Shown here piece after piece: positions 14,213 to 57,700 of a DNA stretch of 64,000 nt. The position numbers and the translations under genes are program-made. The DNA is taken from NCBI GenBank assembly GCA_964503595.1, contig CAZDAM010000003.1, positions 5,844 to 69,843 on the forward strand, read 5' to 3'. Position 1 is the first letter of the stretch. Each line of letters begins with the position of its first letter. The stretch comes from an uncultured bacterium (GTDB lineage Bacteria; Muiribacteriota; UBA6191). A model generated the notes under the pieces. The model did not search any database. It was given only the letters and a program-made list of their open reading frames with translations, and was not told where the DNA came from.

Positions 14213-14224
14213 TTCGGAGACAGC

Positions 14225-15463: not shown

Positions 15464-15466
15464 ATT

Positions 15467-18400: not shown

Positions 18401-18511
18401 ATTCAGCGACCTCTGGCGGTAGTGGTTGCCGGTGGGGTCATTTCGGATACCTTGCTGACTCTGCTCATTTTGCCCTGTCTTCTGGGGCTTTTTCACAAGG
18501 AGGTGGAATGA
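15467..18511 (+). CDS. czcA: Heavy-metal efflux RND transporter (CzcA/CusA family, HME-RND)
   Basis: 1014 aa, 12-TM RND topology with two large periplasmic loops. HME-type conserved blocks 'AIDFGLVVDSSVILVEN' and 'GAPFAALGGILAL'. Confidence 0.8.
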   Translation: MKRLIDFSLKQKAAVVVIALLIMLMGVHSALNLPLDAFPDTTPVMVHVNAEAEGLGPLEIEEQILRPLERTLLATAGVWEIRSLARFGFGQIILIFTDGTKLMHARQSVLERLNGFQLVDGLAPPELGPPATGMGEVFHYTLSSPIRDLKSLMDLQRYELEPRLASVSGVAEINAWGGLLRRAEVLVDLKKLRKYDLRLKDVFEAIRSQVSARGGGGIALGGEYHLIQGDTRYRKLEDIENAVVSTVEGIPVLVSDIGQVIDGHALRRGAVSMNAEGEVLLGLGFMSFEQNGREVSRGLEQALESARDILPEDVSTQVIYSRETIVNAVLQTAGSNLVFGSALVFVVLLVFLGDLRAGLIVALSMPFCLLFAFCGMRVIGIPGTLMSLGAIDFGLVVDSSVILVENTWRRLRGKQDCNRDETVSEASMEMRQATIFGELILILTYLPILFMAGAEGKLFRPMAITIMLALAGSFLWSIFIVPVLSSWFLKPGVQKEARFLKPLKILYLYCLKSLLPRRKIAVACAFLALIGGGFMASRLGARYLPRLEENTLVLSTVRMPGISLEENLVQSRDLEAYLLRRFPHEIRAVLTRIGSAELATDPMGLEQADVFLDLFDKKHWKRAHSQVELQELVRSELESFPGIKIVMTQPIEMRMNEMEAGIRSDVGILIYGENFQELAQRALEVEALVKTLPDAVDVSAEKITGGPMVRIQAHPSELGRYGLMGEDVLNLVEAIGGVPVNLLIQGEKRYDVVVRLPEEMRQDPEKLGGLQLMTEAGGQIRLDAVSDVVMEDGPVLISRERTRRRVVVQASVAHSDVGGFVTRLKEQLERSLEWNTGLSFELGGQFRHYESARRGLVFSISLTLILIFFLLQASTGNLRDTFCIMSGAPFAALGGILALSLMNLPFSISAGVGFVIVCGVSMLNGLVMISTLRRRERKFLNRSLILAALERLQPVLMTALVAFFGFLPMVFSSGIGAEIQRPLAVVVAGGVISDTLLTLLILPCLLGLFHKEVE

Positions 18512-32506: not shown

Positions 32507-33331
32507 TCAGGGAACAGAAGGGACCAGTTTATGGATTTCCTCCTGAAGGATGCGCATTCCCCGGTTCCAGTCCTTATCGCAGTGAGCCGAGATATTGAGA
32601 CGGAAACAGTTGGCATGGCGGCCGGAGGTAGAGAAGACGGTGCCGGGAAGAATGAACACTCCCCGTTCGCTGAGTCTCCAGAAAAGAGCCTCGGCATCCA
32701 GATCCGGGACTTCCACCCACAAAAAGACTCCTCCGGAAGGCATGGTCATGCGGGAATTTCCCGGCAGTCGGGAGGGGAGATCCAGAAGGATTTCATCCAG
32801 GGCCAGATTCATGGCTTCCATGCAGCCGCTGGTGACGAGAATTTCCTCCGGGTTGATGGGAGTGCCGCCTTCCACCATGTGGGCGGCCAGAATGGTTCGA
32901 AGTTCGGTGAGACCGGCGACCGGGGCATAGGAGAGGAGACTTGGCTGAAGCATGGCCTCCCGGAGAAGATCGGCCAGGGTCTTCTGGGGCATCAGGCTGA
33001 GATGAAGGCTGGCGGAGCCCAGATCGAGCATATCGGGCTTGCGGAAAAACTCGGTGATGCCTTCATTTTTGGGTTCGGGACGGGTGGCAATCGGAGAGCT
33101 GGGTCTGTGTTCGGCCCGCCTGACGAAAAAGCCGGAGTGTTCACGGGTTTCGATTTTTCCGAGACTCTCCAGTTCGTAGTAGGCCTTGAGGATGGTGTTG
33201 CGGCTTACTCCCTGCTGATACATCAGATCCCTGACGGAGGGCATGCGGCTTCCGATGGGATAAACTCCCTGTTCGATGCCTTTCAAAAGCGTGGAGGCAA
33301 GGCGCTGCCAGGCAAAACCATCCGTTCCCAT
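32507..33331 (-). CDS. MocR-like GntR-family regulator with an internally deleted aminotransferase domain
   Basis: GntR wHTH 'SVRDLMYQQGVSRNTILKAYYELESLG'. An AAT-like N-part then joins directly to the C-terminal small domain 'GGVFLWVEVP...NCFRLN'. Only 274 aa against about 470 expected. Confidence 0.55.
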   Translation of the reverse strand: MGTDGFAWQRLASTLLKGIEQGVYPIGSRMPSVRDLMYQQGVSRNTILKAYYELESLGKIETREHSGFFVRRAEHRPSSPIATRPEPKNEGITEFFRKPDMLDLGSASLHLSLMPQKTLADLLREAMLQPSLLSYAPVAGLTELRTILAAHMVEGGTPINPEEILVTSGCMEAMNLALDEILLDLPSRLPGNSRMTMPSGGVFLWVEVPDLDAEALFWRLSERGVFILPGTVFSTSGRHANCFRLNISAHCDKDWNRGMRILQEEIHKLVPSVP

Positions 33332-34470
33332 CAGCCTCCCATGGCCAAAGCCAGAGTCTCAACCTGCTTTTTGGTGTTGAACATGTGAAAAGAGAGCCTC
33401 AGGTTTCCCTCGCGAACGCTGGCATCAATTCTTTCCTGCCTGAGTCTTTCTTCCAGAAGAGCGGATTCCATGTTTTTGAGCTTAAGGCAGACAATGGAAG
33501 ACTGTCCACTGGGCTCACAGACTTCGACATTGCCAGAGGGGACAATATCAAGAAAGTGCCGGACCAGAGCCATATTATGCTCTTCAATCTGTTTCAGGCC
33601 GATTTCAAGAAAGAGCTGAAGGCTTCCTTTCAGAAGGGCCATGGGAAGCATGTTCGGGGCCTGTCCGCGATCAAAGCGCCGGGCGCCGGGCAGGGATTCG
33701 GTGGTGTATTTCACCAGGCTGCCGACTTCCTTGCTGTTGGGGCTGGAAAGCCAGGAGGCATGGGTACGCCGAATCTGGTCCAGGGCGTTGGGAGAGAAGC
33801 GGGCAAAGGCATGACCATAGGGGCCGAGCATCCATTTATAGCTGACGCAGGCCAGAATATCGATCACTTCCAGCTCTTCCTTGCGGATCCCGCGTGAGCC
33901 CAGACACTGTGAGGCATCGACCAGAAACAGGATGCCCCGCTTCTTGAGCTCTCTGCCAAGTCCGACAATATCCAGGCAGGTTCCGGTATCAAAACGCACC
34001 AGACTCAGATCCACGAGTCTGGTCTGTGGTGGCAGGTTCTGGATAAGCTGGCCGATATCGGTGAAATCGGCGGGCTTCTGACGATGCAGGGTGAATCCCA
34101 GCTGCTCTTCATTGATCATCCAGGGCAGAATATTGGAAGGGTAGTCTCCTTCCATGACAACGATGGCATCGCCGGGCTGGTAGGTGATGCCGTTGACCAC
34201 ATGGGAGATGATTTCGGATACCGAGGTGGAATGGGCGACTTCATCGGCAGGACAGCCAATCACCTGGGCCAGAAGAGTCCGCATTTCTTCTGTCAGATCG
34301 ACCCAGGCCCGGTAAGGATAGCCGGAAGGATCCATTTCTCTTTCCAGAGCTTTCAGGGCCAGAGTTTTGGCACGGGCCGGAGAGGGGCCGAAGTAGGCGC
34401 TGTTAAAAAACAGGGTGGAGAGATGGGCAAATTCCTGCTGTACGGTCTCAGACTCCAGTGCGGCCATCAT
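33331..34470 (-). CDS. Aminotransferase class V-fold PLP-dependent enzyme (cysteine desulfurase/epimerase-like)
   Basis: 379 aa with class V fold blocks 'GDAIVVMEGDYPSN' and 'ILFLVDASQCLG'. Start/stop abuts the MocR-like gene. Confidence 0.6.
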   Translation of the reverse strand: MMAALESETVQQEFAHLSTLFFNSAYFGPSPARAKTLALKALEREMDPSGYPYRAWVDLTEEMRTLLAQVIGCPADEVAHSTSVSEIISHVVNGITYQPGDAIVVMEGDYPSNILPWMINEEQLGFTLHRQKPADFTDIGQLIQNLPPQTRLVDLSLVRFDTGTCLDIVGLGRELKKRGILFLVDASQCLGSRGIRKEELEVIDILACVSYKWMLGPYGHAFARFSPNALDQIRRTHASWLSSPNSKEVGSLVKYTTESLPGARRFDRGQAPNMLPMALLKGSLQLFLEIGLKQIEEHNMALVRHFLDIVPSGNVEVCEPSGQSSIVCLKLKNMESALLEERLRQERIDASVREGNLRLSFHMFNTKKQVETLALAMGG

Positions 34471-34817: not shown

Positions 34818-35747
34818 GTGTTTTCTTGCAAGCTGTGTGATGCTCATCAAGCAAAGATCTCTGAGCATAAAGATGCAAAAAGCGGCGAGATCCTGTCGAT
34901 CGCTTTTTGTCAGTCCTGTGGTTTGGTGCAACAGACCGAAATTGCCTCAGATGAAGCGCTAAAAATTTATTATTCACATCATTATCGAACGGATTACAAG
35001 AACACTTACAAGCCTAAACTTAGATACGTTTTTCGTGCAGGCAATGCGGCGTTGAAACGCCTGGAATTTCTGCAAAGAGTGATCTCGAAGCCAGAGGCGA
35101 AGTCGCTCATTGACATAGGTGCGGGTGGCGGCGAATTTGTCTATCTGGCCCAGAAGAGTGGATTCCTGGCGCGTGGGATAGAGCCGAATCAGGGTTATTC
35201 GGAATATGCGCGTGACGAATATGGTGCTCGCGTGGATACCCTTATGCTGGATACATTAGAAAACGCATCTGCAGATGTTGTTACGCTGTTTCATGTATTT
35301 GAGCATATGGCCAAGCCGCTAGAAACCATGCGTAAGATTTCAGACATCCTGACCAAGGATGGCTATCTCTTTATTGAAGTTCCGAATATTCTTCAGGCTG
35401 ATGCTTCGCCGCATAACATCTTCTTCAAGGCGCATTTGTTTTACTACAGTCGCTACACGCTTGAGGCTGCAGCTGCGCCGTTTTTTGAAACATTGTTGGT
35501 AGAGGATGGTGGCAACCTTAAGATGCTATTTCGAAAGAAGTCCGTTGCCTTGCCCGCAGTTGTGTCACAAAACTCTGAAGCGGTTATCCAGACACAGCTG
35601 CGACTACACCACAAGGGGTGGATTGAATACTTATTCAAAGCTGGAGGAGCTCTCAAGCTTTTCCGGAGAATTGTTCAGTCTCGACAGGAGAGCACTCTGG
35701 CGGATCCAAGTGCTAAAGCATTGCTTGACCGCTTATTTTTGCAATAG
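34818..35747 (+). CDS. Class I SAM-dependent methyltransferase with N-terminal zinc-ribbon (C-methyltransferase-like)
   Basis: 'CKLCDAHQ...CQSCG' Zn ribbon and 'LIDIGAGGGEF' motif I. The gene and its 350-nt upstream region are visibly lower in GC than the flanks. Confidence 0.65.
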   Translation: MFSCKLCDAHQAKISEHKDAKSGEILSIAFCQSCGLVQQTEIASDEALKIYYSHHYRTDYKNTYKPKLRYVFRAGNAALKRLEFLQRVISKPEAKSLIDIGAGGGEFVYLAQKSGFLARGIEPNQGYSEYARDEYGARVDTLMLDTLENASADVVTLFHVFEHMAKPLETMRKISDILTKDGYLFIEVPNILQADASPHNIFFKAHLFYYSRYTLEAAAAPFFETLLVEDGGNLKMLFRKKSVALPAVVSQNSEAVIQTQLRLHHKGWIEYLFKAGGALKLFRRIVQSRQESTLADPSAKALLDRLFLQ

Positions 35748-35791: not shown

Positions 35792-37753
35792 CTACCTCAA
35801 ACTGAAAGACATCATCTCGTTCAGGCTGAAGTCACGGTTGAGAACGCGCAGGCGGATGGAAGAAGTGCGGCTTTCAATCCGGCGCTGAATGAGATGCATG
35901 ATCAGGCGGGAGAGGCGGTTTCCCCAGGGGGTTTTGCAGGACCTGTGCAGGAAGTTCTGCAGAAACTGGGGGCAGTGTTTACGAAACAGGTCATCTTCAA
36001 GGCTTAGAACCAGTTTGACGCTTCCGGGCTGACCCTGGCGTGAAGTCCTTCCATAAAGCTGAAGATCAATCCGGCAGGATTCATATTTCTGGGTGGCCAC
36101 GACATGAAGTCCGCCAAGTTCCTCGACCTCGCGATCCACATGAATATCGGTACCCCGGCCCGCCATATTCGTGGCAATCGTAATGCCGCCGAGTTCTCCG
36201 GCCTTTGCCACAATCTGGGCTTCCTCTTCATGCTTCAGGGCATTTAAGATTGTGCAGGAGAGATCGGAGGCGGCGAGTTCATTGGCCAGCCATTCGCTTT
36301 CTTCTACGGAACGGGTTCCGACAAGAACGGGCTGGTTTTTGCGATGGACTTCGCGAATATGCTTGAGGATGAAGGACCATTTCTCATCAAGGGTGGCGCA
36401 GACGGTGACAGGTTCAAACTCGTAGGTCCGGGGAATGCGCTTGGGGATTTTCATGGTAGGCAGACGGTAGATCTGCCACAGTTCTTCCTGAAGATTCTGA
36501 AGGGTTCCGCTCATGCCTGAGAGGCGCTTGTACAGGCGGAAGTAGCGCTGAAAACTCATGCGGGTATGGGTTTCGGTTGGATCTGATAATTCGAGTTCTT
36601 CCTTGGCTTCAATGGCCTGATGAAGGCCTGAGCCCCAGTTGCGGTGTTCCATGATCCGGCCTGTTGCTTCATCGACAATCACGACTTTGCCTTCTTCATC
36701 AATCAGATACTGCTGGTTGAGGTGATAGAACTCACGGGCAGCCAGGGCCTGATGCACCAGAAACTGGCGTCTTTCCTTGGCTTTCCACATGGCGGGAAGG
36801 GGTCGTACCAGTTCATCCACAAAGCTTTCACCAGCTGGAGTCAGGCGAATGTCCTGGAATTTACGGTTGACGGTGTAGTGTTTGTCGGGTCGCATCTTGC
36901 GGGCGATTTCACAGGCAATCTGGCTGGCTTCCTTGAGAAGTTCGTTTTCTGAGGGGATGGAAATGATCAGCGGGGTGGTGGCCTCATCGGCCAGAACGCT
37001 GTCAGCCTCATCAATGATGGCGGTGTGAAGGCCGCGCATGACCATGGGTTTTGGGGGTCTTCCCTGAAGATTCCGGATTAGAGAACGGTCCCAGTCCAGA
37101 TCCTCCTGGCCCATCCGATCCCGTAGAAAGTCGGCCAGAAGCTCTTTGCTGGTGGTATAGACAATATCGCGGGAATAGGCTTCCTTTCTTTCCCGGGGGC
37201 TCATGGAGCCCGTAACAGAGGCTCCTCTTAGCTGGCAAAGAGAAAACAGGGGCTGCATGAGTTCGGCATCGCGGGAAGCCAGGTAATCATTTGAGGTGAC
37301 AACATGACAGGGAAGGCCGCTCCAGCCTGCCAGAACCGCCGTGATGCCGGCGACGATGGTTTTTCCTTCTCCCGGTTTCATTTCGATCAGGTAGCCATCA
37401 AACTGGGCCAGCACTCCCATGAGCTGAACTGGGTAGGGGCGCATTCCAAGAGAGCGAAAGGATGCTTCGGCCACCAGAGCCAGGGAGTCGGCCAGATTCT
37501 GTTCTTCCGGATTGGGATTTCCACGAAAGATCTTGCGCGCCGATCTGATTTTTTCCTGAAGCTCTTCGGGGGACAGATGGGCATGCTGAAGGGAAATCTG
37601 GTGGATGGCTTCGGCTTTTTTGCGAAAAACCCGCGGGCTTTTGCGCAGGCGGTGGATCAGGCGGAAAAAGGAATGAACCCAGGCATCAAGGCCCTCATAG
37701 GACTTTTTTTCCCTTGGGACGTGAAAGCGCTGGAATTCGGCGGAAAGATCCAT
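35792..37753 (-). CDS. SecA-like translocase ATPase paralog (motor domains only, lacks SecA C-terminal scaffold/wing/CTD)
   Basis: 'MKPGEGKT' Walker A, 'VVTSNDYLASRD', 'IIDEADSVLADEATTPLIIS', 'ATNMAGRGTDI' and 'GGLHVVATQKYESCRIDLQLYGRTSRQGQPGS...SLEDDLFR' are all canonical SecA blocks. Only 653 aa. Confidence 0.8.
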   Translation of the reverse strand: MDLSAEFQRFHVPREKKSYEGLDAWVHSFFRLIHRLRKSPRVFRKKAEAIHQISLQHAHLSPEELQEKIRSARKIFRGNPNPEEQNLADSLALVAEASFRSLGMRPYPVQLMGVLAQFDGYLIEMKPGEGKTIVAGITAVLAGWSGLPCHVVTSNDYLASRDAELMQPLFSLCQLRGASVTGSMSPRERKEAYSRDIVYTTSKELLADFLRDRMGQEDLDWDRSLIRNLQGRPPKPMVMRGLHTAIIDEADSVLADEATTPLIISIPSENELLKEASQIACEIARKMRPDKHYTVNRKFQDIRLTPAGESFVDELVRPLPAMWKAKERRQFLVHQALAAREFYHLNQQYLIDEEGKVVIVDEATGRIMEHRNWGSGLHQAIEAKEELELSDPTETHTRMSFQRYFRLYKRLSGMSGTLQNLQEELWQIYRLPTMKIPKRIPRTYEFEPVTVCATLDEKWSFILKHIREVHRKNQPVLVGTRSVEESEWLANELAASDLSCTILNALKHEEEAQIVAKAGELGGITIATNMAGRGTDIHVDREVEELGGLHVVATQKYESCRIDLQLYGRTSRQGQPGSVKLVLSLEDDLFRKHCPQFLQNFLHRSCKTPWGNRLSRLIMHLIQRRIESRTSSIRLRVLNRDFSLNEMMSFSLR

Positions 37754-41753: not shown

Positions 41754-41910
41754 GGATATCCGGATTTGACCAGTTTCGCTTTATCGATTCATAAAGTTCA
41801 TTTAAGGTATTGAAAATAGATCATTTCTATTCTTACGTATGGTAGAATTGTCCCCTGAATTTGCCGATTTTTCAGGTGTTAGAGATAAATTTAGGTAGTA
41901 CAGGAGTCCT

Positions 41911-42660: not shown

Positions 42661-42680
42661 GTTTGGTTCTCTTCTGTATC

Positions 42681-42739
42681 CCTCCGCCGTGCCAGGCGGA
42701 GGAATGAAAACAATCGGGATTCCGCTACAGGTGTAGCGG
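42681..42739 (+). other. Two tandem GC-rich hairpins between sapC and the giant gene (possible attenuator/terminator)
   Basis: cctccgcc-gtgcca-ggcggagg (8-bp stem) and ccgctac-aggt-gtagcgg (7-bp stem) followed by a T-rich tract. Confidence 0.4.
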
Positions 42740-42788
42740 GGTCCCTTTGGTGTTTCTTGGCAATTTTCGAAAAACGCAGGAAAAACTT

Positions 42789-45700
42789 ATGAGCTCAAAA
42801 ATGAAAAGCCTTGTCAGAACCCAGACCTACATGAAAGCACGCCGCTTTTTTCAGAAATTTACGAAGAAGAAGGAGGCCGCTCCTCAGGTGCTTGATGGCA
42901 GACGGGAACGCTTCCGTCTGGACAGCCTTGAAGAGAGAGTTCTGCTTTCAGCAGATCCGGTTACGGAGACGGCTCATGCGATTTTGCACGAACCTCAGAA
43001 GAACGAGTCCCGAATTGAGCTTTTAAGTGAGGCTTCCCTGCGTCAGCCTACCCTAAGCCTTCAGGAACAGCACCCTCAGGCCGCAATTGTTCTGGATGCC
43101 GGCACGCTTTCCCAGAACAGAAATTCCCTGGAATCCTCCCTTGTGATCGGCGAGAACGAAGTTCTTGGCGGCAGTGGAAATCTGGGCATTCACCTGATGA
43201 ATGATGGCACCGTTGCTCCCGGATATTCTCCCGGAGTTCAGAATGTAGCCAGCTTCACCCAGGCCGAAGGTGCGACCCTTGAAATCGAAATCGGGGGCAG
43301 TGGGGTTGCCGGGGCCTCCGATGGTTTTGATCAGCTCAATGTCTCCGGTCTGGCAAGCCTTGGTGGCAAGCTTGAAGTCACCCTTCTGAATGACTACAAA
43401 CCTCAGGTCGGAGACACTTTCGACATCCTTACCTTTGGCTCGGTGAGCGGAGAATTTGATTCGGTAGGCGGTCTTTACGGATTTTATGCAGATTATTACT
43501 TCGATGTGGTGCAAAAATCCGATCGCATTCAGCTGGTCGTCAAGGAGCTTTTGCCCGGAGATACCTTCGAGATTGCCGCTGACGAGGCCTTTCGAGATGC
43601 CATGTCGGAGTTTCTGGCTCAGGATTATCTCAAGAAGCCGACTTCCATTACCTTTACCGGCTCCATTGATCTTGGAGATGCCTTTTCGGTTGGAGGCACC
43701 TTTACCCTGAATCAGGTCAGCACCGGTCAGGATGTCACTTTAAGTGATGGGTCCACAGTCAATGTTTCGATCAAGACTCTGGGGATGCGGGGCGCTTCAG
43801 CTTCTTTGGGTGGAAGCTTCGGCCTTCAGTTCGGCGGAGCTGATCTGGGAATTGCCATTTTTGATGCAACTTCCGAAGAAGATGGCCGCAGTTGGGTTGG
43901 AGCCCAGGGAAGTCTGGAAAGCGTTTCTCTTTTGAATCTTGGAAGCTACGGCATCCAGGGAGAAAACCTTCAGCTTGACATCTTCCAGGCCCTGGGAGAA
44001 GACAATGATGTTTTAATCGATTTGTCGGAAACCCCGTTGAGTATTTCTGATGGCAGTGGAACACTGGCTGAATTCTCCAATGACGGAGTTTTTGGGGAGT
44101 ATCTGAACGTGGCTGGAAATCTCCAGCTCACCATGCCTTTTTTGAATGTCTCCGGAGATTTCTTTGTCTCCGCGGATGATGCCTCCCTGTTTCTGGCCGG
44201 AGAAAATGTCACCGCTAGCTTTGAAGCCGGAGGCATGACTCTGGGTGTAAACAATGCCCGCTTTGGGGCCTACATTTTTGAAGATCAGAGCATGGTTCTG
44301 GAAGCAACCGGTGGCCTTGTCATGAGTGGAGGCGATTTCACGCTTCCTACTGGCGATTCTGTGAGCCTCAAATACAACACCACTGGCATCGAATTCACCG
44401 ATCTGGAAATGGCGATTGGGGAGAGATCCTTCACTTTTGGAACCATCGAAGCTTCCGAAGAACTCCTGGAATTGAGCATCAGTGGCTTTGAAGCCAACCT
44501 GGGCGGAGTGTTCGGGCTGTCCGGAGACTTCGGTTTCCGCAAAAACGGGGAAGATCTGAATGTGGTGGCTCAGAATGCTGCCGTAAGCCTGAATGCTGGC
44601 GGCTTCAAGGCTGGAGTGAAAGACGCCACCCTGGGTCTGAAAATGAGCGATCTGGGAACCGCCATGGAAGCAACCGGCGCGGCCTGGTTTGAGCTTGGAG
44701 ATGCAGTTTCCCTGAGTGCTGACAGTGTCCAGGTGCTCTATAACGAAACCGGAGAAGACCTGATTGGAACCAGTCTCTCGGCTGCTTCTCTGGAATATAC
44801 CTTTACAGCAATTGAGGGTTCGACGACCCTTCAGCAAGTGGCTGTAAGTGGGGCCAGCCTGGAAGTGGCCGGCTTTGTGCAGGCCAGCGGTAATCTTGCC
44901 GTCAAGCGGGATGAAGTTGCTCTGGAGCTTTCGGATGAGTCCCTGGTTCTGGCCGAGCTTTTGACCATTGGTGGCAAGAATGTAAGCGCCTTTGCCGGCC
45001 TGAATGGTGGCTCTTCCTCCGCTTTGGGCCTTCAGATCAGCGCCCTGACTTTCGGGGTCGCCCTGATGAGCGAAATCGATGGTGAGGAGAGAAGCTGGAC
45101 AGCCGTCTACGGGGAAGCCGAATCCGCCGGATTTGTCGGTCCAGACAGCCTCACGATTTCTGCCAGTGCCCTGAAACTCGAACTGAATCTGGCCTCAGAA
45201 GACGGCCTGGTAGTGGATTTCTCGGAATTCAGTCACAGCGTTCCCGTTGGTGTGGGCGAAAGCCTCAGCCTTACGATGGACGCTCAGCGGGGCGAACTGA
45301 TCAGTGTCAGTGGCAACCTGAACATCCGCATCTTTGATTTCTTCGCCGTCTCCGGAGGCTTTGCCCTGGAAAAATCCACAGAAACTCTGAGGCTTTCGGA
45401 TGAAAGCGAAGTGGAAGTGGAGCTTCTGACTCTGGGAACCCAGGGAGTCTCGGCTTTTGCCGGTCTGAATCATGGCAGTGACAATGCCTTTGGTTTCTCT
45501 TTGGGAGATGTGAGCCTGGCTTTGGTCATGGCCACAGAAAAAGAGGATTCCTCCCAGTCCTATGTGAGCCTGAAAGCTCAGGCTGGCAGCGTAGCCTTTG
45601 AAGGAATCCCCGGAATCACCATTGCCGCAGATACCCTGGCCGTGGAACTGAACCTGGCATCAACAGAAGGTCTTTTGGTGGACTACTCCACCAAAGCCCT

Positions 45701-48700
45701 TACCGTACCCACGAGTTCTTCCACCAATATGAGCCTCACTATGGATTCCGAGGATGGCGAGCTGGTACGCGCTTCCGGAAATATGGATCTGGATCTCTTC
45801 GGCTTTGTGCAGGTTTCCGGGGGCTTTGGTTTTGAAAAGAAAACTGAAGTGGTGACTCTGGCTGATGGCAGCGAAGCCGAAGTCGATCTGATGACACTGG
45901 GGGCAAATGATGTCTCCGCATTCGCCGGAATCGCAGCTTCAAGCTCAAGTCGGGTGGGCCTTGCCTTAAGCGGACTGAATTTCGGTCTGGCCCTGATGTC
46001 CGATAAAAGCCGGGATGATCGCTCCTGGCTGGCCCTGAAAGGAAATGTAGGGGCTGCCAGTTTTGAGGGAATTCCTGGAATGGAGCTGGCCGCAGAATCC
46101 CTCAAGCTTGAAATCAACCGCTATACCGGAGAAGAAGGCGCATCCACAACCGAAACGATTGTGGAAACCTCCACGGAAACGGTCACGACGGAAAATACTC
46201 AAACCACCACAACAACAACCAAAACCGACACGATCTACAAACTGGATCTGAATGGGGTTGTGGCTCCGATTACTTTGAAACTGGGCGGAGAAACAGCCAC
46301 GATTCAGGTAAGCAAAGGGGCCGATTCGGATTCATTGCTGACCTCGATCAGGCAGGCTCTGGAAGGTTTTGCTGCCATTGGCGAAGGCAATGTTACCGTA
46401 AGTGGCAATCTGGTGGCGGGCTTTGAAATCCGCTTTCTGGGCGATCTGGCGGGAACTTCGGTGGAAGGCCTGAGTGTTGAGACCAGCTTCTTTGAAGTTT
46501 CCACAAACAGCTCGGAAACAAAGAATGCTCTGGTGGGCCGAAGTGAAAGCCAGACTCTGACTATTTCCAATCCAACCCTCAAGGGTTCGGGACGCTACAC
46601 CTTAAGTCTGGATGGCAAGAGCACCGGCGAAATCCGTTTTGCCGGATCCGATGTGGGCAACAATGCCCGCTATATCCGTGAGGCTCTGGAAAAAGTTTCC
46701 GGTATTGGAGCGGGTAATGTGAAGGTGGTCTACGACCAGAACTCCTCCACAACCAGCCAGCGCTATATCATCACCTTCAAAAAAGGTCTGGCCTACACCG
46801 ATATCAGCCTGCTTCAGGCCAATAACAATGGTTTGAAGAATGCGATTGTGGCCGTGACTCCGGGGCAGGATGGTTCCGTTGCCAGAGGAGAAACCAACCG
46901 GGTTTCCATCAATACCCTCGGCGATGTGGATCTGAACCTGCGCTTCACGATCAACGGCAAGGAATACCGCACGGATTATTTTGAGTCTGACTCTTCCGCC
47001 GACAAAGTGAAGTTCATGATTGAGCGGGAAGTCTACAGGGATGATATTGAAGTCCAGGTGACCGAGATCGCCAAAGGCACCTGGGACATCACCTTTGGAG
47101 GGGCTGCAACTGGGGTTTCCCTGGATGATTTTCTGGTGAATACATCGCAAAGCATTGAGTCTGCCAAGCTTCTGGTTTCCCAGATGGGTAAGACGGATGT
47201 AGAGACGGAGACGACGACTACCAGCAGCACGGAAACCATTGAGGTGGAAGAGACCACGGTTCTGGAATATCCGGCAGATGTGGTGGTGGACTTCTCTGAG
47301 AGCAATCTTGATGTTCTCACCGGACCCGACGCGACCATTGGGATTGATTTTGACGGAGATCTTGGAAATCTCCTGAGAGCTTCCGGAAATCTGAATATCA
47401 ATCTGTTCAATTTCTTCTCGGCATCCGGGGCTTTTGCTCTGGAAAAGTATGCCAGCGAAGTGACCCTGGATGATGGAAGCACCCTGGAAGTGGATATGCT
47501 CACCATCGGCGGGCATGGAATTGATGCTTTCGCGGGCCTTAACGGAGGAAGCCCTTCCCGTGTTGGCTTTGAGCTCGAGGCTGCTGATTTTGCCCTGGCG
47601 ATTATGACTGGCGTGGAAGACCCGGCTCTTCAATACACCAGCCTTCATGCCAGTGCCGGAAGTGCGGCTTTTGTTGGCTTTGACAATCTCAGAATTGCGG
47701 CAACCGACATCGAGATCCAGATCAATCAGGCTGATGAATACGGCTTTGTCGTGGACTGGCTGAAATCTCCTCTGGCCCTGACGACTGGCCCTGATTCTTC
47801 CACAGAAATGAATATGGATGGCTCGCGTGGAGAGCTTCTGAGCCTGTCGGCCAATATGGAAATCGATGTGGCCGGATTCTTCATGGTCAACGGACGCCTG
47901 GCCTTTGAAAAGTATGAATCCGTTGTGAAGCTTTCGGATGGCAAGGAAGCCGCAGTCAATCTGATGACGATTGGCGGCAAGAATCTCAATGCCTTTGCCG
48001 GAGTCAACGGAGGCAGTTCCGATCGGATGGGGATTGCCATCGACAATACGGAATTCGCCCTGGCCATGCTTCAGGAAAAAGGCGAAGGAGGCCGTAGCTG
48101 GACTTCTTTGAAAGCAACGTCTGATTACGCTGGCCTGGTGGGCCTTGATGGAATTCTGACGCTGAACGGGCAGGGCATTGCCGTCAATATCAATGACAGT
48201 GCTGAGGATGGCACGGTTGTGATGTATGGCGAAGAGGGCATGGCCATTCGGACCAGCGCGGATACCTCGCTGATTCTTGATATGAACCACCCAGGCAAGA
48301 TCATGCGGGCTGAAATCTATCGGGCTACTCTGGATATTGGTGGTTTCATCCAGATTCTGGGTGGAATCTATTTTGAGAAGGCCGAAAACGTCGAAGTGGA
48401 TGTTCGTACCGGCCTGCCGCTGGACTTGAGTGCCAATACTGGTTTGAGCTCCATCAGCTCGGATCTGCAACGTCTTAAGAATGATGGAATTCTGAGTGAG
48501 GACAATCAGACTCTGACCAATCTGAAGGTGGATTCCCTGACTTTTGGAGCCGGAGACGTTGATGTCTTCGTTGGCTACGGCCCTTATTTTGTGGATTCCA
48601 ACAATGATGGTGTCATCGATAGTCATGACACCCCCAACGAGGATGCATTCGGGTTTTCCCTGGAAAATATCGATGTTGGCTTTGTCACCATGCAGGCGGC

Positions 48701-51700
48701 CAAATCGGTGGATCCGAACGGCGTCATTCCCAAGATGTTTGCCCTGAAGGCGTTCTGGGCGGATCCGCTTGATATTGACTGGGGTTTCTTCAAATTTGAT
48801 ATCGATAATCTGATAGTTGAAGCGAACCAGGGTTCCAAGTGGAAGGGCACCCAGGCCACTCCATTCATTGATTTTGCCTCAAGCTTTGAAAACGGCTATG
48901 CCATTCCGACCCCAGGCGGCGATTCGGACATCGTTCTGGATTACAGCTCCTCCGTGATCGGAGCGTCTTTTGGACATACGCTTCTATCGATTGAGAATTT
49001 CTTCACGATTGAAGGTTCCTTCGCATTCTACAAATACGGTGGCATCACCGTTGATATCGCTACCGGACTTCCCGGAACCCTGCCTACCGGAACTGACGGA
49101 AATACCCGTACCGGTCTTCAGCAGCTGAAGAGTGCGGGCTATCTCTCGGATGACAATTCCCGCATCATGGCAATGCCGATGAATGTGATCACCATTGGTG
49201 GAGATCAGGTCAATATCTATGTGGGCGATGTGGATGATCCATTGCTCTCCTTCACCGACATTGATTTTGGAATTGCCCTTTATACCGCTGATAAGGGAAT
49301 TGATACCAAAGGGATCATTCCCCGCATGTATTCCATGCGCGCTTCCATTCCGGATGCCGTTGATATCGACTGGGGCTTTTTGCAGCTTGAAGTCAAGGAT
49401 CTGGTCCTAAAGGCCAATTCCGGAAGCCAGTGGAAGGGCCTGACCGGTCTGAAGCCCTATGTGGATTACACCACAAGTTTTGAAGAAGGCTTTGCCATTC
49501 AAACCGGAAATGAGCCCGTTATTCTTGATTATAACCGTGGCTTTTTGGGCGTGGAAATGGGTTATGCCCTGGTGAATATCGGGGACTTCCTGTTTCTGAA
49601 CGGCTCCTTCAATCTGGAAAAGACCGACAACGTTGCGATCGATATCGTAACCGGATATACCTCATCTTCCTTCTGGACCGCTCCTTCCAAGGTTCAGGCC
49701 GGTCTTCAGAAGATGGGTGGATTGTCTTCGGACAAAACCCGCATTGAAGATATGACGATGTCCGGCTTTGTTCTGGGCGGGGACAGTGTCAATGCCTTCA
49801 TTGGAATGGGTCCTTACTTTGAGGACACCAACGGGGATGGCCGGATCAATTCGGATGATGTCAGAAATGATGGTGCCATTGGCTTTGCCGTGGACAATCT
49901 TGATATTGGTCTGTCCATTTTCAAAAGCATCAAGGCTCTGGATCCGGACAAGGTCCTGCCGACATTCTATGCCCTGAAAGCCAGTGTGGATGCGATCGGT
50001 CTGGTTGGAATCGATTTCTTTGAACTCTCAGCCGAGGGCGTGACCCTCAAGGCCAATTCCGCGAGCAAGTACAAAGGTGCCCAGGTCAGTCCCTGGATTG
50101 ACTTCACTCAGAATTATCCTGATGGATTTGAAGTTTCCAAGGGCAACGGGGAATCCGTCTTCCTGGACTTCAGGGATCCGATTCTGGGGATCAATGTTGA
50201 ACGGGCCACCTTCATCATTGATAAATTCATTCATATCCAGGGAGCCTTCTCCTTTGAGCAGGGAGCCCGTCACCGTGTCAGTGTCGATACGGGAGTGAAT
50301 ACCTTCACAGGCTCTGCTCTGGCGGGCACTCTTGCCCAGCTGGAGCTCAAAACCGATGCTGAGGTCTCTTCCGACTGGACCCGGATTGAAAACCTGGAAG
50401 TGATTTCCACCACGATTGCCCTGAGTGATGTGGATGTTTTCGTAGGCTTCGGGGAACCTGATTTTGATCAGGACTTCAAAGAGCAGGACGATCTTTTCGG
50501 CTTTGGTATCAAGGACGTGGATCTGGCCATCGGCATGTTCAAGATTGCTGCCGACGTCAAAAACTTCCCGACTTTCATGGCCCTTTATGGGGCATCCAGC
50601 CAGTTTGAACTGTTCACCGGTCTTGATTTCTTTGAGTTCTCAGGGGAAGCCCTTCAGATCGAGCTGAACAAGGGAACCAAGTGGAAGGGCTCCGTTGCAG
50701 CTCCGACCATCAATTTCAAGGACAGTTTCCTGCCAGTTGGTGATAAGCCGGCTGGAATGGAGACGGTTGCCGGAACCGAAAGTTTCTACCTAGATTTTGC
50801 CGGTCCGGTCATTGGAGTCCAGGTCTTTGATGCTGTCATGAGAATTGACGGCTTTTTGCACATCGCTGGTGATTTTGCCTTCCGCAAGGAAACCACCAGG
50901 CAGACCATTAAAACGACTCTGGGATCCTATGAGGATGTAAACCTTGAGGCCATGAGCATTGCGGCCAATGATGCCTACCTGTTTGCCGGTCTGAGCTATT
51001 ACGATTTCTCTTCCGGGGAAATGGAGACTCTGGTCGGGGTTGAACTGGAGAATGTGAATGTCGGAATCGGTATGTTCAAGCCGACTCTGGACAATTCTCC
51101 CCTGATTACATCCCAGAAATTCCAGTTCACCACGGTCAAAGCCCATGCCGATCGGGCGGCCCTGGTAGGAATTGAAGATCTTCTGACTGTGGATCTTCGT
51201 GATATCACGATTGAAGCCAATCTTGGCAAAGGCAGCAATCCACTTCTGAAGCCTTTCATTGATTTCTCGGAAGATCCCTATGTGATTGAAGTTGGTGGAG
51301 AAGAAGTCGTCTTTGATTATGACAACAGCTGGCTTCTGGCATCTGTTGGTCTGGCCCATCTTCAGCTTTCCCAGTTTCTTTACCTGCATGGCTCTCTTGC
51401 TATCAGCAAAGCTGGAGCCCGTGAAGTCAAGGTCAATGCCGGGGAGTTCTCCTCTCTTCTGGGTGGAGATACGGTGACCCAGAGTGTTGAAACCATCACC
51501 ATCGGCGGACAGGATCTTTACGGTTTTGCCGGAATCGGCGGACCTTACCGCGAGGATTCCAACGGGGATGGTGTGATTGATGATCAGGACGGGGTCAATG
51601 ACTCTGCTCTTGGGGTCAGTCTGGAGGATGTGGATTTTGGGGTTGCCGTGATGACAACGGTTCTTCCCGGAGGCCTTCCTGCCAAGGGTCTGCCGACCTA

Positions 51701-54700
51701 TGTCGCGACCAAGGCCCATGTTGGACGGGCTGCCCTGATTGGTATGGAAGAGTTTCTGGATGTGGAACTCAACAAGGTGGAAGTCAATATCAACACTTCC
51801 ATCATCAAGGGACTGCCACCTCAGGCAGCTCTGGTGGCCCGCCTTCCGAACATCAATTTTGAAGAGTCCTTTGAAGAGGGTTACTACGCTGTTCCTACCG
51901 GGGCGGATGATGTCCTCATGGACTTCAATAATGAGCTGATTGAAATTTCGATTGGCTATGCAGAAGGAAACCTGGCCGGAATTCTTCAGCTCAGCGGTTC
52001 CATGGCCTTTTCCAAGCGGGGCTCGGAAGAAGTGACCTTAACGGATGGAACCAAGAAAACGGTTTCCACTCTGAGTCTGGGGATTGGAAATGCCTACGGC
52101 TTTGTCGGCTACGGAGGTTACTGGAGAGATTCCGATGGCAACGGCAAGATCGATGAAAACGATATTCCGAATACCTCAGCTGTAGGCCTTGCCATTGAAG
52201 ATTTGAATGTTGGCGTTGTATTCATGCGCGCCATTGACAATACGGATGTCTATGTCGGAGCCCAGGCCGATCTGACCAAGGCCGGATTCGTCGGAATTCC
52301 GGGAGTTACCTTTGAAGGCCGTGATTTCAGCCTCAGCCTGAATGCTTCCGTGACCGGTCCTGCCGTGGATTTCTCGGTATCCGGTGCAGATGGTGGGGCA
52401 TATCATGTGAAAACCGGTGAATTTGATCCGGAAACAGAAGAAGAAATCGATATCCTTCTGGAGCATGATGAGAAGCTTCTGGCAGCCCAGGGTGTTGCTG
52501 AAATCAACTTCTTTGATGTGGTTCAGATTGACGGAGCCTTCGATATCACAGTCGCAGAGTCCGGCATTGTGCTGTTTGCGGATGGCGATGCCTTCATCGG
52601 TGCGGGTGGCATTGGAATGTCCACCAGTGTGACCGGTCTTGTGGCCATTGAAGATGGTATGGCCATGCGTCTGAATCTGGAGCAGGGTCTGGATCTTGGA
52701 CCTCTGGCTTCCTTTGATGCGGAATTTGAATTCCGGATGAATACCTTTGGCCGGGACTATGTCTATGTGGTTCCGGAAAAACTCAGGGAGAAAACCGGAT
52801 TCGATGAATTCGTGGTTTCAGCCAAAGCACCCGGACAGGATGAGGTTTCCGATTTCTATGTCTCCCTGACCGGAGAAGGACACCTGAGTCTTCTGAGTGC
52901 TCTTGATATTGATGGTGAATTTGCAATTGTCTTCACCGAAGACAGTGCCCGTCTGGAAATCGGCGGCATCATCGATATGCCTCTGTTTGAACCTATCGGT
53001 GTTACCGGAACTCTCGGGTTTGAGGATGGCGGGCTTTACGGAGCTCTTCAGCTCGGACATCCATCCGGTTCGACTCTGATTGATGCGGGAGTTTTCTCCA
53101 TCAGCGGTTCTTTCCTGCTTCAGATCAATACGACATCGGAAACCCAGACCGTCAAGGCTCTGGACTTTTCTGAAGACGGAACCATCATTGGTTTCACTAC
53201 CAGAGAGATTGCCGCGGAAGAACTCTATATCGCCGGAACTGCATCGATTGAGCTGGCCGGATTTCTGGAAATGTCCGGCTCCGCAAGCCTGAGGCTGAGT
53301 TCTGAAGGAGTGGAAGCCGATCTGGCCATGAGCCTGGATCTGGGAGCCTTCGGAAGCCTGGAATTCAAAGGTGCTGCCGCAATTCTGAATACTGAGGATG
53401 AGGGCGCGGTCTTTGCCCTGAGCGTGGAAACCAATGTTGTCCTGGGCATGGATATTGTCGGAATTCAGGCTGGAGCCCTGCTTCAGATCAATACCAGCTC
53501 CATGCACGAATATGCAGGTGTTCAAGCCGGAACCACCTTCCTTCTGGAGCTCGACGGGGCCCTGAAGCTTCTGGCCTTCAATATCGATTTTGCCGGATCG
53601 ATCAGCGTGATTGACGGCATCTTTGAACTCCGAGTTGATGAAGCCAGTCTGAGCTTCTTCAATTTCGTGAATATTGAAGTCAGCGGATATTTCCGCTCGG
53701 ATGGAAAATGGAGAGTCAGTGGCGAAGCCCATATGAACATTGACATGGGTCCACTGGAACTCAGTGCCGGCTTTGAACTCACGGTCGGGCACGACATCTT
53801 CCGGGCAAGGGTCTATGGTTCTTTGGATATCAATATCGATATGGGGCTTTTCTCCATCAATGAAACCCTGGCAGGTTTTGAGGGTCTGATTGAAATCACG
53901 GAAGCCTCGGCCCACCTGAAAGCATCCGTTACCATTGTGGGAATCAGTGTCTCCGGTTCCATGACCTGGAGCTGGGGTGCTCCTCCGGTGATTGCTTCCC
54001 AGGTTGGCGACACCGTCATCCTTCACATGGGTGATGATGCTGACAAACGGGGCGATCTCTATCTCGACATCGTCAACGAGACCTATCACATCGAGGAACA
54101 GAAGGGAGTCCTGACAGTCCGCGCCATGGGTGAAACCATGGAATTCCGCAACGTGAAGCGGATTGTCGCCAAAGGTGGCAATGGCAATGACACCATCATT
54201 GTTGGCACGGGTGTTACCGCCAAGCTCGAATTTGATGGAGAAGACGGAACGGACACTCTGCTGATTGCCGGAGGTGCTGAGGGCTCTGTCATTCGTGGTG
54301 GTGCCGGCAATGACTATATGGTTGGTGGAAACGGCGGCATCTACTATTACGGGGATGGTGGCAATGACACCTTCATCGGGGGCGATGGCGGCGAAATCAT
54401 TGACATGGGTACCGGCAAGAACACAATTACAGCTGCCGGTGGAAATGACGTTATCTATATCGGAGCCGGGAATAACACGGTAGATGCCGGTTCTGGCAAT
54501 GACACCATGTATGTGGGCTGGAACGGGTATCTGGAGCTCACTGCCGGATCCGGAGAAGACATTGTCATCATGGATACCCTGGCTTCCAACGAGTCCCTGA
54601 AATTCAAGGATCACAGTCTGGAATACAGCTTAAGGGCCATGGACTTCGGTGATGATCTCGAACTGATTCAGATCAGGGATACCGCGGCGACCACAAAAAT

Positions 54701-57700
54701 CGAGAACAATGGTGTGGACAGCTGGGGTTCCACCGGGCTTTATCTGGAGTCGTCCGGAGTGCTGGATGTCACCGAAGCAAGTCTGATCATGCCCAAAGGG
54801 CAGGTTACCCTGATTTCTCAGGGCATCAACGGGGTTCTGAACACCCAGATCGACACGCTTACGGTTGTAAACCATGCCACAGGTTCTTACGCGGACATTG
54901 TCATTCGTGAAGTCGATGATCTGAAGATTGTGAAGAATGGTCTGGCCCAGGGAGGCATCTATACAGCCGGGGGTCAGATTGATATTCAGCTGAATGCCCA
55001 CGAAGCCAATCTTCATCTCGAATCCGGAATCATCCGGACCCATGGAGCCGGAAAAGGCATTCGCATTGTTGCCGATGATGTGGACTTCAATTCCGGTAAA
55101 GACATGGTTACGGCTTCGGGGCAGTTTGAGCTTCTGACCCGTTCCCAGTCTCAGGGTTACCGAATCGGTGGCGCTGGTCAGTCCTCCTTTGGCAATGACT
55201 ATACCCTCGGCTGGGATAACGGCTACCTGAATTTCTCCATGAAAGACGTGGAAGCTCTGACTGACGGCTTCAGTCTCCTGAAATTCGGCACCGAAAATTC
55301 CACGGCCCTGATGTTTGTCGGGGATCTGGAAAATGCTGACGTGGATGTGAAGCATTTTGATGCCAAAATCACGGATGTTGCGGAATTCCATGCCCGCCGG
55401 ATCAATATCGTCGGGGATGTTCAGGCTTCCCAGAAGGTGACTTTTGCCTCCGAACTCCTGGAAATCTGGCGAACCAATATCAACAATCCGTTCGGACAGC
55501 CGGACTCAGGGATTACAGGCACCGAACTTGTCCTGAATATCAGTGAGCAGATGCTGGTGACCGGCTACATCCGGGCCGAGGACAGCCTGAAAATCCGGGT
55601 GAATGGATCGACGGGTCAGGGTGCCATGGTGACCTATGGAGCCGAGCCGAATTCCTTCACGGCCGATCAGGGCAGTTCGATTGTGACCCTGAATGATGGT
55701 GCCGTCCTTGATATTGAAACGTCCGGCTCCATTTACAGCGCCACGAATATCGAGGTCATGGGCAAGAACTCCCAGCTGAAGATGAAGGCGGGAACAGGAC
55801 TTACCATCCTGGAAGGAGCCGTGGTCGCGGCCCGTTATGACAACAGCTCGATTCTTCTTGAATCCAGCAAGTATCTCCACATCAATTCTGGTGGAGCGGT
55901 TACTGCGGGAGCCCGCTTTGATGATATCAACGGGGAACCGGTTGCCGTAAAAACCGGGGCAAATGCTTCCATGACCCTGAAAACTTCCGGGGAAATGAAG
56001 CTTTCCGGCTCGATTACAGCGTCGGGAAGTATGGAACTGAGTGGGGGCGGGGCAGAATCCGACTACAAAGATTACTTTGATACGATTCCCGGAAAAGTAC
56101 TTGGAAAAATGGTGGCATCGGATACGGTGCTGGCAGCTCTTCAGGCTGGAAACATTGATTCAGCCTTAAGGCAGCTTTTCGCTGAAAATCATCTGGATCT
56201 TGGCAACAGTGTCAGCGTGAACGGAGTCGGTTCCTACACTTCTTTCAATGATCTGACTCCGGAACAGAAAGCTCTGGTGGCTCAGGCTCTGGGCTATACC
56301 GTCTATGAGGGCACCAATTACTACAATCCGGATGCGCCTGCTGGAAGACAGCTGATTGATGCCTTCATTGAAGGCAACAGTCCATTCCTGCAACCGGGAC
56401 AGACTCCCGCGGATCTGGGCTATACCTGGCATGCAGGCACTTTCTTTTACAACCCGCTCACCGGAGAAATCCTCAGTGGTTTCAAACAGGGTGTGTCCGC
56501 AGACTATGACAATGCGGATATCAACTGGGGCAGTGCGGGAGCTCCCGCTTCCGGCACCGGTTTTGATGCCCTTACCGCAGATCAGAAACTCAAGGTTGCA
56601 GCTCATCTGGGATACCAGACCGATGATGGCAAGGATTTCTATAACTTCAATGCTGTTCAGGGTAAGAAAGTGGTTCGCACCTTCACCCAGGGACTGGTAA
56701 CCCAGTACCGCAATGCGGATATCTACTGGGGCAATGTTGCCAAGCCGTCGGATTCCCAGTCATTTGCAAGTCTGAGCGCTGAACAGAAAGCTGTTGTAGC
56801 CAGAACTCTTGGTTTTGAGATGGTCACTGGGGGCGCCTATGTAAATCTCAATGCCAGTGCCGGCTTACAGGTGGTTTCACAACTGACAACGGCTCCAGCG
56901 GATTACCGGTTGTCCCAGATTGATTTTGCGGGAGTTCCGGCTCCTCAGGAAGGGACAGCCTTTGAATCCCTGACTCTGGAACAGCGCAATCATGTGATCA
57001 GCGCACTGGGATACGAAGTCTTTGAAGGTCTGCTCTATATCAATCCTGAGAGCGGATCTCTGGTCACGACATTTACCAGCTACAACGGGGTTGAGTGGGG
57101 CGATGATCTGGCGGCTCCGGCCGAAGGCACGCCATTTGAAAAACTGTCCGGCCAGCATCAGCAGAAGGTTCTTGAGAGTCTTGGCTACAGGGTTTTCACC
57201 GGAACGGCCTACTACAATTCCGACGCAATCCCAAGCAAGCAGTTTGTGCAGGGTTTTGTCGAGGGAGTGGACTATCTGAATTCGGCCATAACCTGGTCCA
57301 GGGTAGAGATTCCGGATGCAGGCACAGCCTTTGAGGACATGACTGCCAATCAACAGAATGCCCTCCTCAAGTCCCTGGGCTATGAAGTCCACAACAACAC
57401 GGTCTTTTACAAGGCAGGAGCTCCGCTTGAGACCCGCCTGATGACAAATTTTGTGGAAGGTCTTCATTACAATAATGCTGATATGCCTTGGGGCGAGTCC
57501 GGAACGGCCGTGACCAACCGCTACATTGTGAATGACGGAACAAATCAGTACGTCATCTACACTCTGGATCAGGAAAATGATGGAATCATCGATGAGATCC
57601 AGATCCAGAAACCGCATGAGCTTCTGGGCCAGCGTGGGTATGGATTCCTGCTGACCGGTACGATTACAACACTGGAAGATGGCCGGGATCTGGTCATTGC

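Follow-up and report, generated by a model that had tools for sequence, protein, structure and literature searches.

Introduction

How do bacteria export proteins of 10,000-36,000 residues? Giant proteins of the LEPR-XLL type carry no recognised export signal, yet at least two of them have been reported to be exported. The question is posed by a locus of an uncultured bacterium (GTDB lineage Bacteria; Muiribacteriota; UBA6191), which we analysed as a stretch of 64,000 nucleotides, hereafter the window (GenBank assembly GCA_964503595.1, contig CAZDAM010000003.1, positions 5,844 to 69,843 of the forward strand). Here, the gene of a SecA-like protein follows two genes for membrane-fusion proteins (MFPs), one with an M50 protease domain (M50-MFP, or M50-HlyD) and one with a GAF domain (GAF-MFP, or GAF-HlyD), and on the opposite strand stand the genes of a SapC-family protein and of a giant protein with a LEPR-XLL motif. 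We propose, with a probability of roughly 0.6, that the SecA-like protein serves as the cytoplasmic motor ATPase in a tripartite, type-I-like but non-ABC exporter, whose cargo would be the neighbouring LEPR-XLL giant protein.

The family to which this protein belongs, and its locus, were described computationally by Kamneva, Poudel & Ward in 2015 (PLoS One, PMC4452313). These secondary SecA_DEAD proteins coexist with canonical SecA in complete genomes, and they form a clade that is separate from canonical SecA and lies beside actinobacterial SecA2. Their locus comprises genes for Peptidase_M50/HlyD, GAF/HlyD and HlyD proteins and sometimes for an OEP protein, and has no ABC transporter. The authors proposed that the SecA_DEAD protein had been co-opted as the ATPase and that the M50 protein might form a pore. 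The text of that paper names no cargo, and it mentions neither giant proteins nor LEPR-XLL, PqqD, SapC or an adhesin.

Giant proteins have been approached from two other sides. West-Roberts et al. (bioRxiv 10.1101/2023.11.21.568195) found wing-less SecA domains inside giant proteins of Omnitrophota and actinobacteria, for which self-export was suggested. In addition, according to a 2026 preprint, Chlorobium chlorochromatii exports its LEPRxLL giants Cag_663 and Cag_665 to a partner cell though they 'lack known signals'. SapC, TolC and a distant HlyD protein were proposed there as the route; the SecA-like and M50 genes were not connected with it, and the supplement of this Chlorochromatium preprint holds nothing on Cag_1676 or secA.

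Results

Domain content and fold of the SecA-like protein

The Pfam scan assigned residues 41-426 of the SecA-like protein to SecA_DEAD (E 1.2e-82) and the region from residue 451 onwards to P-loop_SecA (E 9.7e-50). The motor motifs are complete, with GEGKT at 128, DEAD at 248, an exact ATNMAGRGTDI at 527-537 and GRTSRQG at 568. A preliminary description of this DNA, made from its letters and translations, had recognised the NBD1, PPXD and NBD2 signature blocks of SecA, and these positions and Pfam matches agree with it: the features of a housekeeping SecA, namely the DEAD motor, the Walker A/B and arginine-finger motifs and the PPXD insert, are all there. The protein had also been said to end about 60 aa past SLEDDLFR, and the distance from that motif (584-591) to the C-terminus is 62 aa.

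Where, then, does this protein depart from canonical SecA? In a phmmer alignment, residues 42-645 match residues 18/21-604/607 of Bacillus subtilis SecA (E 3e-111), and the C-terminus corresponds to about residue 610 of the B. subtilis protein. A 90-aa basic extension had been proposed for the N-terminus. Because residue 42 already pairs with residues 18-21 of B. subtilis SecA, only about 20 residues are extra, and this proposal is not upheld. Homology to the N-terminal SecA helices covers residues 42-100, and what precedes these residues is a family-specific, mildly basic segment of about 41 residues (1-41; 9 K/R versus 5 D/E) in place of the N-terminal segment of the canonical protein.

At the other end the differences are larger. 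The Pfam scan gave no match to SecA_SW, and the SecA-like protein therefore has no wing domain, no two-helix finger and no C-terminal linker or zinc tail, all of which canonical SecA has; the alignment to SecA maps the missing C-terminal parts in the same way. The preliminary description had counted the helical scaffold among the losses together with the wing and the zinc-binding tail. For wing and tail this is correct, but part of the scaffold survives. The AlphaFold model, computed with 68 homologues (pLDDT 87.5, pTM 0.83), ends in a single 39-residue helix, residues 609-647, which equals the first long scaffold helix of SecA. In sum with the DEAD motor, the PPXD clamp and an NBD2 carrying ATNMAGRGTDI and GRxxRQG, this helix is common to the window protein and canonical SecA (B. 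subtilis; PDB 1m6n, 5eul and 6itc), to which it is about 36% identical and superposes with a TM-score of up to 0.83. The best Foldseek superpositions are with SecY-bound, substrate-engaged SecA (5eul and 6itc, TM-score 0.82-0.83).

Curated models place the protein at a distance from both named SecA groups. It scores 522.4 bits against a cut-off of 814 (NF009538) and 504.8 against 800 (TIGR00963) with the NCBIfam SecA models, and it stays below each of the four SecA2 models (461.7 bits of 1085, 423.2 of 930, 395.9 of 725 and 340.8 of 1100). A protein with near-identical domain content, without the C-terminal regulatory third, is Escherichia coli SecA-N68 (PDB 5k9t; Foldseek E 3e-43). SecA-N68 is an artificial truncation with deregulated ATPase activity, whereas the window protein is the natural product of a conserved gene, with the long helix and an N-terminal segment of its own.

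Could the protein be a nucleic-acid helicase, or an ATPase of anti-phage defence, that merely resembles SecA? Pfam also gave weak DEAD and Helicase_C matches, and the PGAP labels on some homologues read 'DEAD/DEAH box helicase' or 'helicase-related protein'. However, the PPXD insert is specific to SecA, the neighbouring genes encode envelope proteins, and the top Foldseek matches of the model are all SecA structures (E at most 1e-31, best 1e-50), as against about 1e-10 for helicases. None of the four operon proteins matched a PADLOC model, and a role in defence was dropped on this ground. We regard a helicase or defence function as very improbable.

The gene is intact

Compared with a typical SecA the protein is about 250 aa short, and the 64-kb window contains no second secA. 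Both points would be expected if the gene were a decayed or mis-assembled piece of a housekeeping secA. Its relatives argue otherwise. The 68 aligned homologues, which come from many phyla and are 43-55% identical to the window protein, share a uniform length of 637-678 aa (median 656) and conserved termini. Near the start, G21 and D23 are conserved; in the last helix Q623 and R634 never vary, and L638 and F650 hardly ever do. The best 120 matches likewise measure 625-678 aa, with the exception of P0019, a protein of 830 aa that covers 74% of the query. No match exceeds 55% identity, the nearest being metagenome-assembled genomes (MAGs) of Cloacimonadota/UBP17.

The sequence behind the gene leads to the same conclusion. 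A convergent methyltransferase gene (34818-35747, + strand) ends 44 nt from the stop of the SecA-like gene, and the 1 kb downstream holds no same-strand open reading frame (ORF) of more than 93 codons. With this convergent gene and no same-strand coding remnant, a frameshift split is excluded as the source of the shortening. Moreover, every catalytic motif is intact, the operon context is conserved and recurs on plasmids, and the published genomes hold both SecA copies. That the gene is a broken secA is hardly conceivable, and the earlier view of an intact SecA paralog reduced to the motor is supported by homologue length, termini, synteny and plasmid copies.

The operon and its relatives

In the window, the GAF-HlyD stop lies 3 nt ahead of the M50-HlyD ATG, and the M50-HlyD stop lies 4 nt ahead of the ATG of the SecA-like gene (TGAcgaaATG). 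By this 4-nt spacing alone, the SecA-like gene would be translationally coupled to the M50-HlyD gene, as had been suggested before. The locus resembles that of the secondary SecA_DEAD family in several respects. The window protein has the same SecA_DEAD, PPXD and NBD2 domains, its SecA_SW is absent (in the family it is wholly or partly lost), and its gene likewise stands next to Peptidase_M50/HlyD and GAF/HlyD genes on the same strand. In contrast, the small HlyD gene and the sometimes adjacent OEP gene of the family locus are both missing from the window. With high confidence, we assign the SecA-like gene to this family as a new member, predicted from its sequence and neighbourhood to work with M50-MFP and GAF-MFP.

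How general is this arrangement? Related loci were collected by a one-genome-per-species scan seeded on M50-MFP, and the best 80 of 183 stretches, from at least 12 phyla, were compared; adjacency was counted in the 69 loci of the 80 that have room for the gene in question. The SecA-like gene directly follows the M50-MFP gene in 68 of these 69 loci, and the GAF-MFP gene is upstream-adjacent to M50-MFP in 67. An OEP and a small MFP are both present in 49 of 52 related loci, so that the gene order of the relatives reads TolC-like OEP, small MFP, GAF-MFP, M50-MFP and SecA-like protein. Only one locus of the 80 has an ORF for an ABC-like ATPase. Seen from the motor, the picture is the same: all five looked-up SecA-like homologues of 640-670 aa sit in the operon, often beside very large genes. 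The sixth, the 830-aa P0019, has no operon genes around it, and is uninformative either way because its contig is only 4.4 kb long. The M50-MFP family itself is large, with 5,609 clusters at 50% identity (E at most 1e-30) and a uniform length.

The operon also occurs on complete plasmids of cultured Alphaproteobacteria, namely Methylosinus, Pseudosulfitobacter, Alisedimentitalea and Pontibrevibacter, where the SecA-like proteins are 39-41% identical to that of the window. In two alphaproteobacterial plasmid versions (L086, 9744-10064, and L212, 12854-13135; related loci are numbered with L), a small gene with a DUF3467 domain lies between the giant gene and the MFP gene, in the place that SapC takes elsewhere. 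Its product may be a cargo chaperone; a comparison with PDB sequences gave no informative match.

Two loci deviate from the common layout. In L056 (1-12037, a MAG of Geobacteraceae), no SecA-like gene follows M50-MFP, and tblastn found none in the 10 kb downstream. In L042 (1647-4958), a single frame of 1,104 codons spans the usual place of GAF-MFP and M50-MFP, either as a fusion or as an assembly artefact. Public names are of little help in recognising the genes. In a survey of L086, L087, L211, L212 and the matches of the SecA-like protein, the SecA-like proteins appear under inconsistent and partly wrong names ('prepilin peptidase', 'helicase-related protein', 'DEAD/DEAH box helicase', 'preprotein translocase subunit SecA'), and M50-MFP appears as 'PqqD family protein', 'site-2 protease', 'HlyD family...' and 'PqqD family peptide modification chaperone'.

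Architecture of the two membrane-fusion partners

M50-MFP is made of three parts. The first is a cytoplasmic PqqD-like domain of beta3-alpha3 topology (model elements 18-97, Pfam match 37-100). In pathways for ribosomally synthesised and post-translationally modified peptides (RiPPs), domains of the PqqD type act as the elements that recognise the leader peptide (RREs). The topology is seen in the AlphaFold model (pLDDT 83), and the Pfam PqqD match falls in the same register in five of six M50-MFP proteins tested. Plasmid homologues score 31.6 and 25.7 bits, above the gathering cut-off of 23.4. The second part is a membrane domain of the M50/site-2-protease type, with HEMGH at 209-213 and NGNPLTRLD at 303-311; the HExxH and NPL..D columns are invariant in the family alignments. 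The third is a periplasmic membrane-fusion domain (about residues 445-714), which Foldseek matched to the fold of MacA, MexA and AcrA (E about 1e-12). GAF-MFP, in turn, combines a cytoplasmic GAF domain (190-315), one transmembrane helix (350-368) and a periplasmic membrane-fusion domain (374-615).

A PqqD-like domain joined to a protease recalls RiPP pathways, of which PqqD-type domains are typical. In addition, among the curated NCBIfam models, those for the daptide and YydH/LiaK leader-peptide metalloproteases come nearest to the M50 part, with scores below cut-off, and PGAP calls homologues 'PqqD family peptide modification chaperone'. Does the operon then mature and export a small peptide, with the PqqD-like domain and M50 processing a short leader peptide, the MFP and OEP proteins exporting the product, and the giants as bystanders? 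No recurring small precursor or modification enzyme was noticed in the inspected loci, where short ORFs were not searched systematically. Furthermore, the sole conserved leader-like motif found is on the giant proteins, and a 650-aa motor with a polypeptide clamp would be needless for short peptides. On balance we consider this function improbable.

LEPR-XLL giant proteins beside the operon

The giant gene of the window runs off its end. Within the window, the product has no transmembrane segment and no hydrophobic signal peptide by hydrophobicity scan, and no cysteine; it contains one RTX block (Pfam HemolysinCabind). The NF012209 match spans residues 42-64, and a basic stretch precedes the motif. 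A protein search with the first 100 aa returned 0 matches.

The same leader recurs in the related loci. A leader regex gave 16 matches in the 1.12 million six-frame residues of the 80 loci, and all 16 fall within the first 75 aa of ORFs that flank the operon. A close variant occurs in L074, and L089 is another case. Altogether, the LEPR-XLL leader aligns in giant ORFs of 17 of the 80 loci, and an adjacent ORF of at least 1,500 aa is found in 20 of the 80. The aligned leaders consist of a basic stretch followed by [F/Y]x[L/V]Ex-LE(P/E/Q)RxLLS-(A/G)DP, with no hydrophobic core. Directly upstream of the operon, two complete plasmids encode proteins that PGAP annotates as LEPR-XLL, one of about 12,900 aa in Pseudosulfitobacter and one of about 10,600 aa in Pontibrevibacter. 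In L066, a MAG of C. chlorochromatii, the operon directly follows a giant open frame.

A metagenome scan for DNA encoding LEPRILLS(A/G)DP found 120 loci, 117 of them in frame, and the motif lies a median of 50 residues past the upstream stop. Two links are added to the 2015 description by the predicted proteins: the operon stands beside LEPR-XLL giant genes, and M50-MFP starts with a PqqD-like, putatively leader-binding domain.

SapC, the spacer and the presumed divergent promoters

Coordinates of the features around the operon are collected in Table 1. Type I secretion loci are known to carry SapC as an accessory gene, and it also occurs in loci related to that of the window. The spacer between SapC and the giant gene contains two strong hairpins; the second, with a 13-bp stem at 42716-42745, is followed by the T-rich tract TTTGGTGTTT. 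The signal scan gave a terminator-like hit in this spacer, and read-through into the giant gene may be controlled by the second hairpin, as an attenuator or terminator. The interval between the divergent units presumably holds the promoters of both. Their placement there is an assumption from position, since the scan found no sigma-70 consensus site within 41754-41910.

Several antisense ORFs of up to 674 aa (46602-48626, 50790-51719, 52818-54614 and 56877-57617, - strand) overlie the giant gene. They are almost certainly artefacts and not genes, because their translations look low-complexity in a repetitive, stop-poor coding sequence.

Table 1. Positions in the window of the SecA-like gene, its partners and the candidate cargo gene
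Feature	Position	Strand	Details and support
SecA-like motor ATPase gene	35792-37753	-	ATG start, clean stop, 653 aa
PPXD of the SecA-like protein, aa 279-382	36608-36919	-	Pfam SecA_PP_bind, E 4.3e-23
Retained long scaffold helix of the SecA-like protein, aa 609-647	35813-35929	-	AlphaFold model and alignments
M50-MFP (M50-HlyD), 714 aa	37758-39902	-	Pfam Peptidase_M50; AlphaFold; Foldseek
GAF-MFP (GAF-HlyD), 615 aa	39906-41753	-	Pfam GAF, HlyD_D23, HlyD_3; hydrophobicity scan
Divergent intergenic region, 157 bp	41754-41910	.	Between GAF-MFP operon (-) and SapC/giant genes (+)
SapC-family protein, 249 aa	41911-42660	+	Pfam SapC, E 4.4e-73
Structured SapC-to-giant spacer	42661-42788	+	RNA fold -52.3 kcal/mol, z = -4.4
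Giant protein gene, at least 7,070 codons, off window end	42789-64000	+	Stop-free frame 42708-63998
LEPR-XLL motif FRLDSLEERVLLSADP, giant aa 42-57	42912-42959	+	NCBIfam NF012209, 25 bits vs cut-off 17

The remainder of the window

The remaining window is ordinary chromosome of a diderm bacterium. A lipid A cluster comprises lpxI (1962-2789), two lpxB paralogs (2790-3926 and 5671-6840, both + strand) that flank an MsbA-like ABC exporter gene (3923-5680, + strand), and a lipid A acyltransferase gene (6804-7850); it is from these lipid A genes that the host is taken to be diderm. The msbA-like gene is the sole ABC gene in the window.

Further on, a small ORF (12435-12830, + strand) has an N-terminus that looks HicB-antitoxin-like by eye only. 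A Cys/His-rich small ORF (13895-14212, + strand) is followed by an MFP gene (14225-15463, + strand), whose product ends in ...GDACCG, and by the gene of an AcrB-family pump (15467-18511, + strand). The stretch 13895-18511 looks like a heavy-metal efflux operon of the Czc/Cus type (CzcBA-type pump), with no outer-membrane gene beside it. A MocR-like regulator of 274 aa (32507-33331, - strand) consists of a GntR domain and pieces of an aminotransferase domain, and may be truncated; after it comes a class V aminotransferase gene (33331-34470).

Discussion

A SecA-driven exporter as the proposed mechanism

How could the parts work together? We infer the mechanism, including the identity of the cargo, the cleavage of its leader, the inner-membrane pore and the independence from SecYEG, from gene content, domain architecture, intact catalytic motifs, synteny and motif co-occurrence. 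The exporter would be built in the window from the RRE-bearing M50-MFP and from GAF-MFP, to which most relatives would add the small periplasmic MFP and the TolC-like outer-membrane factor. Its cargo would be the neighbouring giant protein, with the short basic N-terminus and the LEPR-XLL-type motif as the leader. The PqqD-like domain of M50-MFP would bind this leader, and the intramembrane HExxH protease of the same protein would probably cleave it. The SecA-like motor would grip the unfolded chain in its PPXD clamp and push it, N-terminus first and with ATP, through a passage formed by the M50 membrane domains into the MFP tunnel and on to the outer-membrane channel. The GAF domain might gate export on a small-ligand signal. 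A broader claim is that the operon forms an export pathway distinct from Sec, Tat and ABC systems for LEPR-XLL giants of 7,000-36,000 aa, possibly acting co-translationally; we advance it tentatively, at odds somewhat below even.

A different arrangement would leave the motor on the housekeeping translocon. An accessory, SecA2-like motor could dock on SecYEG to move a special cargo, possibly the giant protein, and the MFP and outer-membrane parts would act later or separately, in a two-step process. Several observations are in keeping with this possibility: the SecA-like model fits SecY-bound SecA best, the protein retains the PPXD and the long scaffold helix, both of which are turned towards SecY in known complexes, the family's clade neighbours actinobacterial SecA2 (PMC4452313), and the operon has no dedicated inner-membrane channel protein of known type. 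Against it, the two-helix finger and the wing domain are missing from the motor, and the leader is devoid of the hydrophobic core that marks a Sec signal peptide. Moreover, the annotated related loci showed neither a SecY2 gene nor an accessory Sec gene; the near-universal tight coupling is instead to membrane-anchored MFP proteins. Docking on SecYEG is in our judgement unlikely, without being negligible.

Comparison with known systems

SecA2 is likewise a second, non-housekeeping SecA, apparently devoted to special and often very large surface proteins. However, its hosts are Gram-positive bacteria and mycobacteria, whereas the window host is a diderm with lipid A genes, and it works with SecY2/Asp partners or on the normal SecYEG, instead of with MFPs and TolC-type proteins. 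The two-helix finger, too, is retained in SecA2 proteins.

Type I secretion systems and the ABC exporters with a C39 peptidase offer a second comparison. They too employ MFPs and, as in most relatives of the window locus, a TolC-like channel; they have a SapC accessory gene, their cargo is, like the candidate cargo here, very large, Ca-binding and repeat-rich, and in C39 exporters a leader-cleaving protease is likewise built into the inner-membrane component. The membrane-fusion proteins characteristic of type I secretion are represented in the window by GAF-MFP (HlyD_D23 and HlyD_3) and by the C-terminal domain of M50-MFP. The differences concern energy, protease and signal. An ABC protein energises type I secretion, whereas here a SecA-type motor is present and the operon has no ABC gene; C39 exporters use a C39 protease, whereas the operon has an M50 protease and, in most relatives, three different MFP proteins; and the type I signal is C-terminal and uncleaved, whereas the candidate signal here is an N-terminal motif.

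The giants of West-Roberts et al. share with the present family a SecA motor without scaffold and wing, a proposed export of giant proteins and a normal SecA that coexists with it. In those proteins the motor forms part of the giant polypeptide itself, adjoining transmembrane segments, whereas the window encodes it as a protein of its own, 653 aa long, in an operon with MFP and M50 genes.

Points that weigh against the proposal

Several observations do not sit easily with a SecA-driven exporter of LEPR-XLL giants. The first concerns the parts themselves. No M50 protease is known to serve as a protein-conducting pore. The PqqD match of the window M50-MFP reaches only 13 bits, under the cut-off of 23.4, and hidden Markov models built from the relatives detected neither an OEP gene nor an orthologue of the small MFP anywhere in the 64 kb. 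The TolC-like OEP gene may lie past the window end, or the protein may be shared with another system. A further point is expression: in Methylobacterium extorquens AM1, the operon genes except the GAF gene were barely expressed during exponential growth (PMC4452313).

The second concerns the cargo. In the metagenome scan, 36 LEPR-XLL gene starts have 4 kb or more of DNA upstream; SecA-like or M50-MFP genes were found there at 7 of these 36, and SapC alone at 6 others. This reverse test does not prove a one-to-one link between LEPR-XLL proteins and the operon, and leaves the association weaker from that side. It does undercount, because the layout with the giant gene first puts the operon tens of kb from the leader, as in L087; at the remaining LEPR-XLL loci, the operon may lie beyond the distal end of the giant gene or at another site in the genome. 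In addition, the large neighbours in L011 (6820-13422), L039 (547-6570) and L088 (12010-21765), the last with FG-GAP, Big and cadherin domains, have an ordinary hydrophobic signal peptide. The leader model does not fit every big neighbour.

Significance

The family and its locus have been known computationally since 2015, and the window protein is a new sequence in it. If the proposed exporter is real, it would supply the cargo class that is missing from the 2015 description, and it would explain the exit of Cag_663 and Cag_665. It would also give a second SecA its first job in diderm bacteria. More broadly, a SecA-type motor would then be a fourth power source for tripartite envelope machines, beside ABC, RND and MFS proteins.

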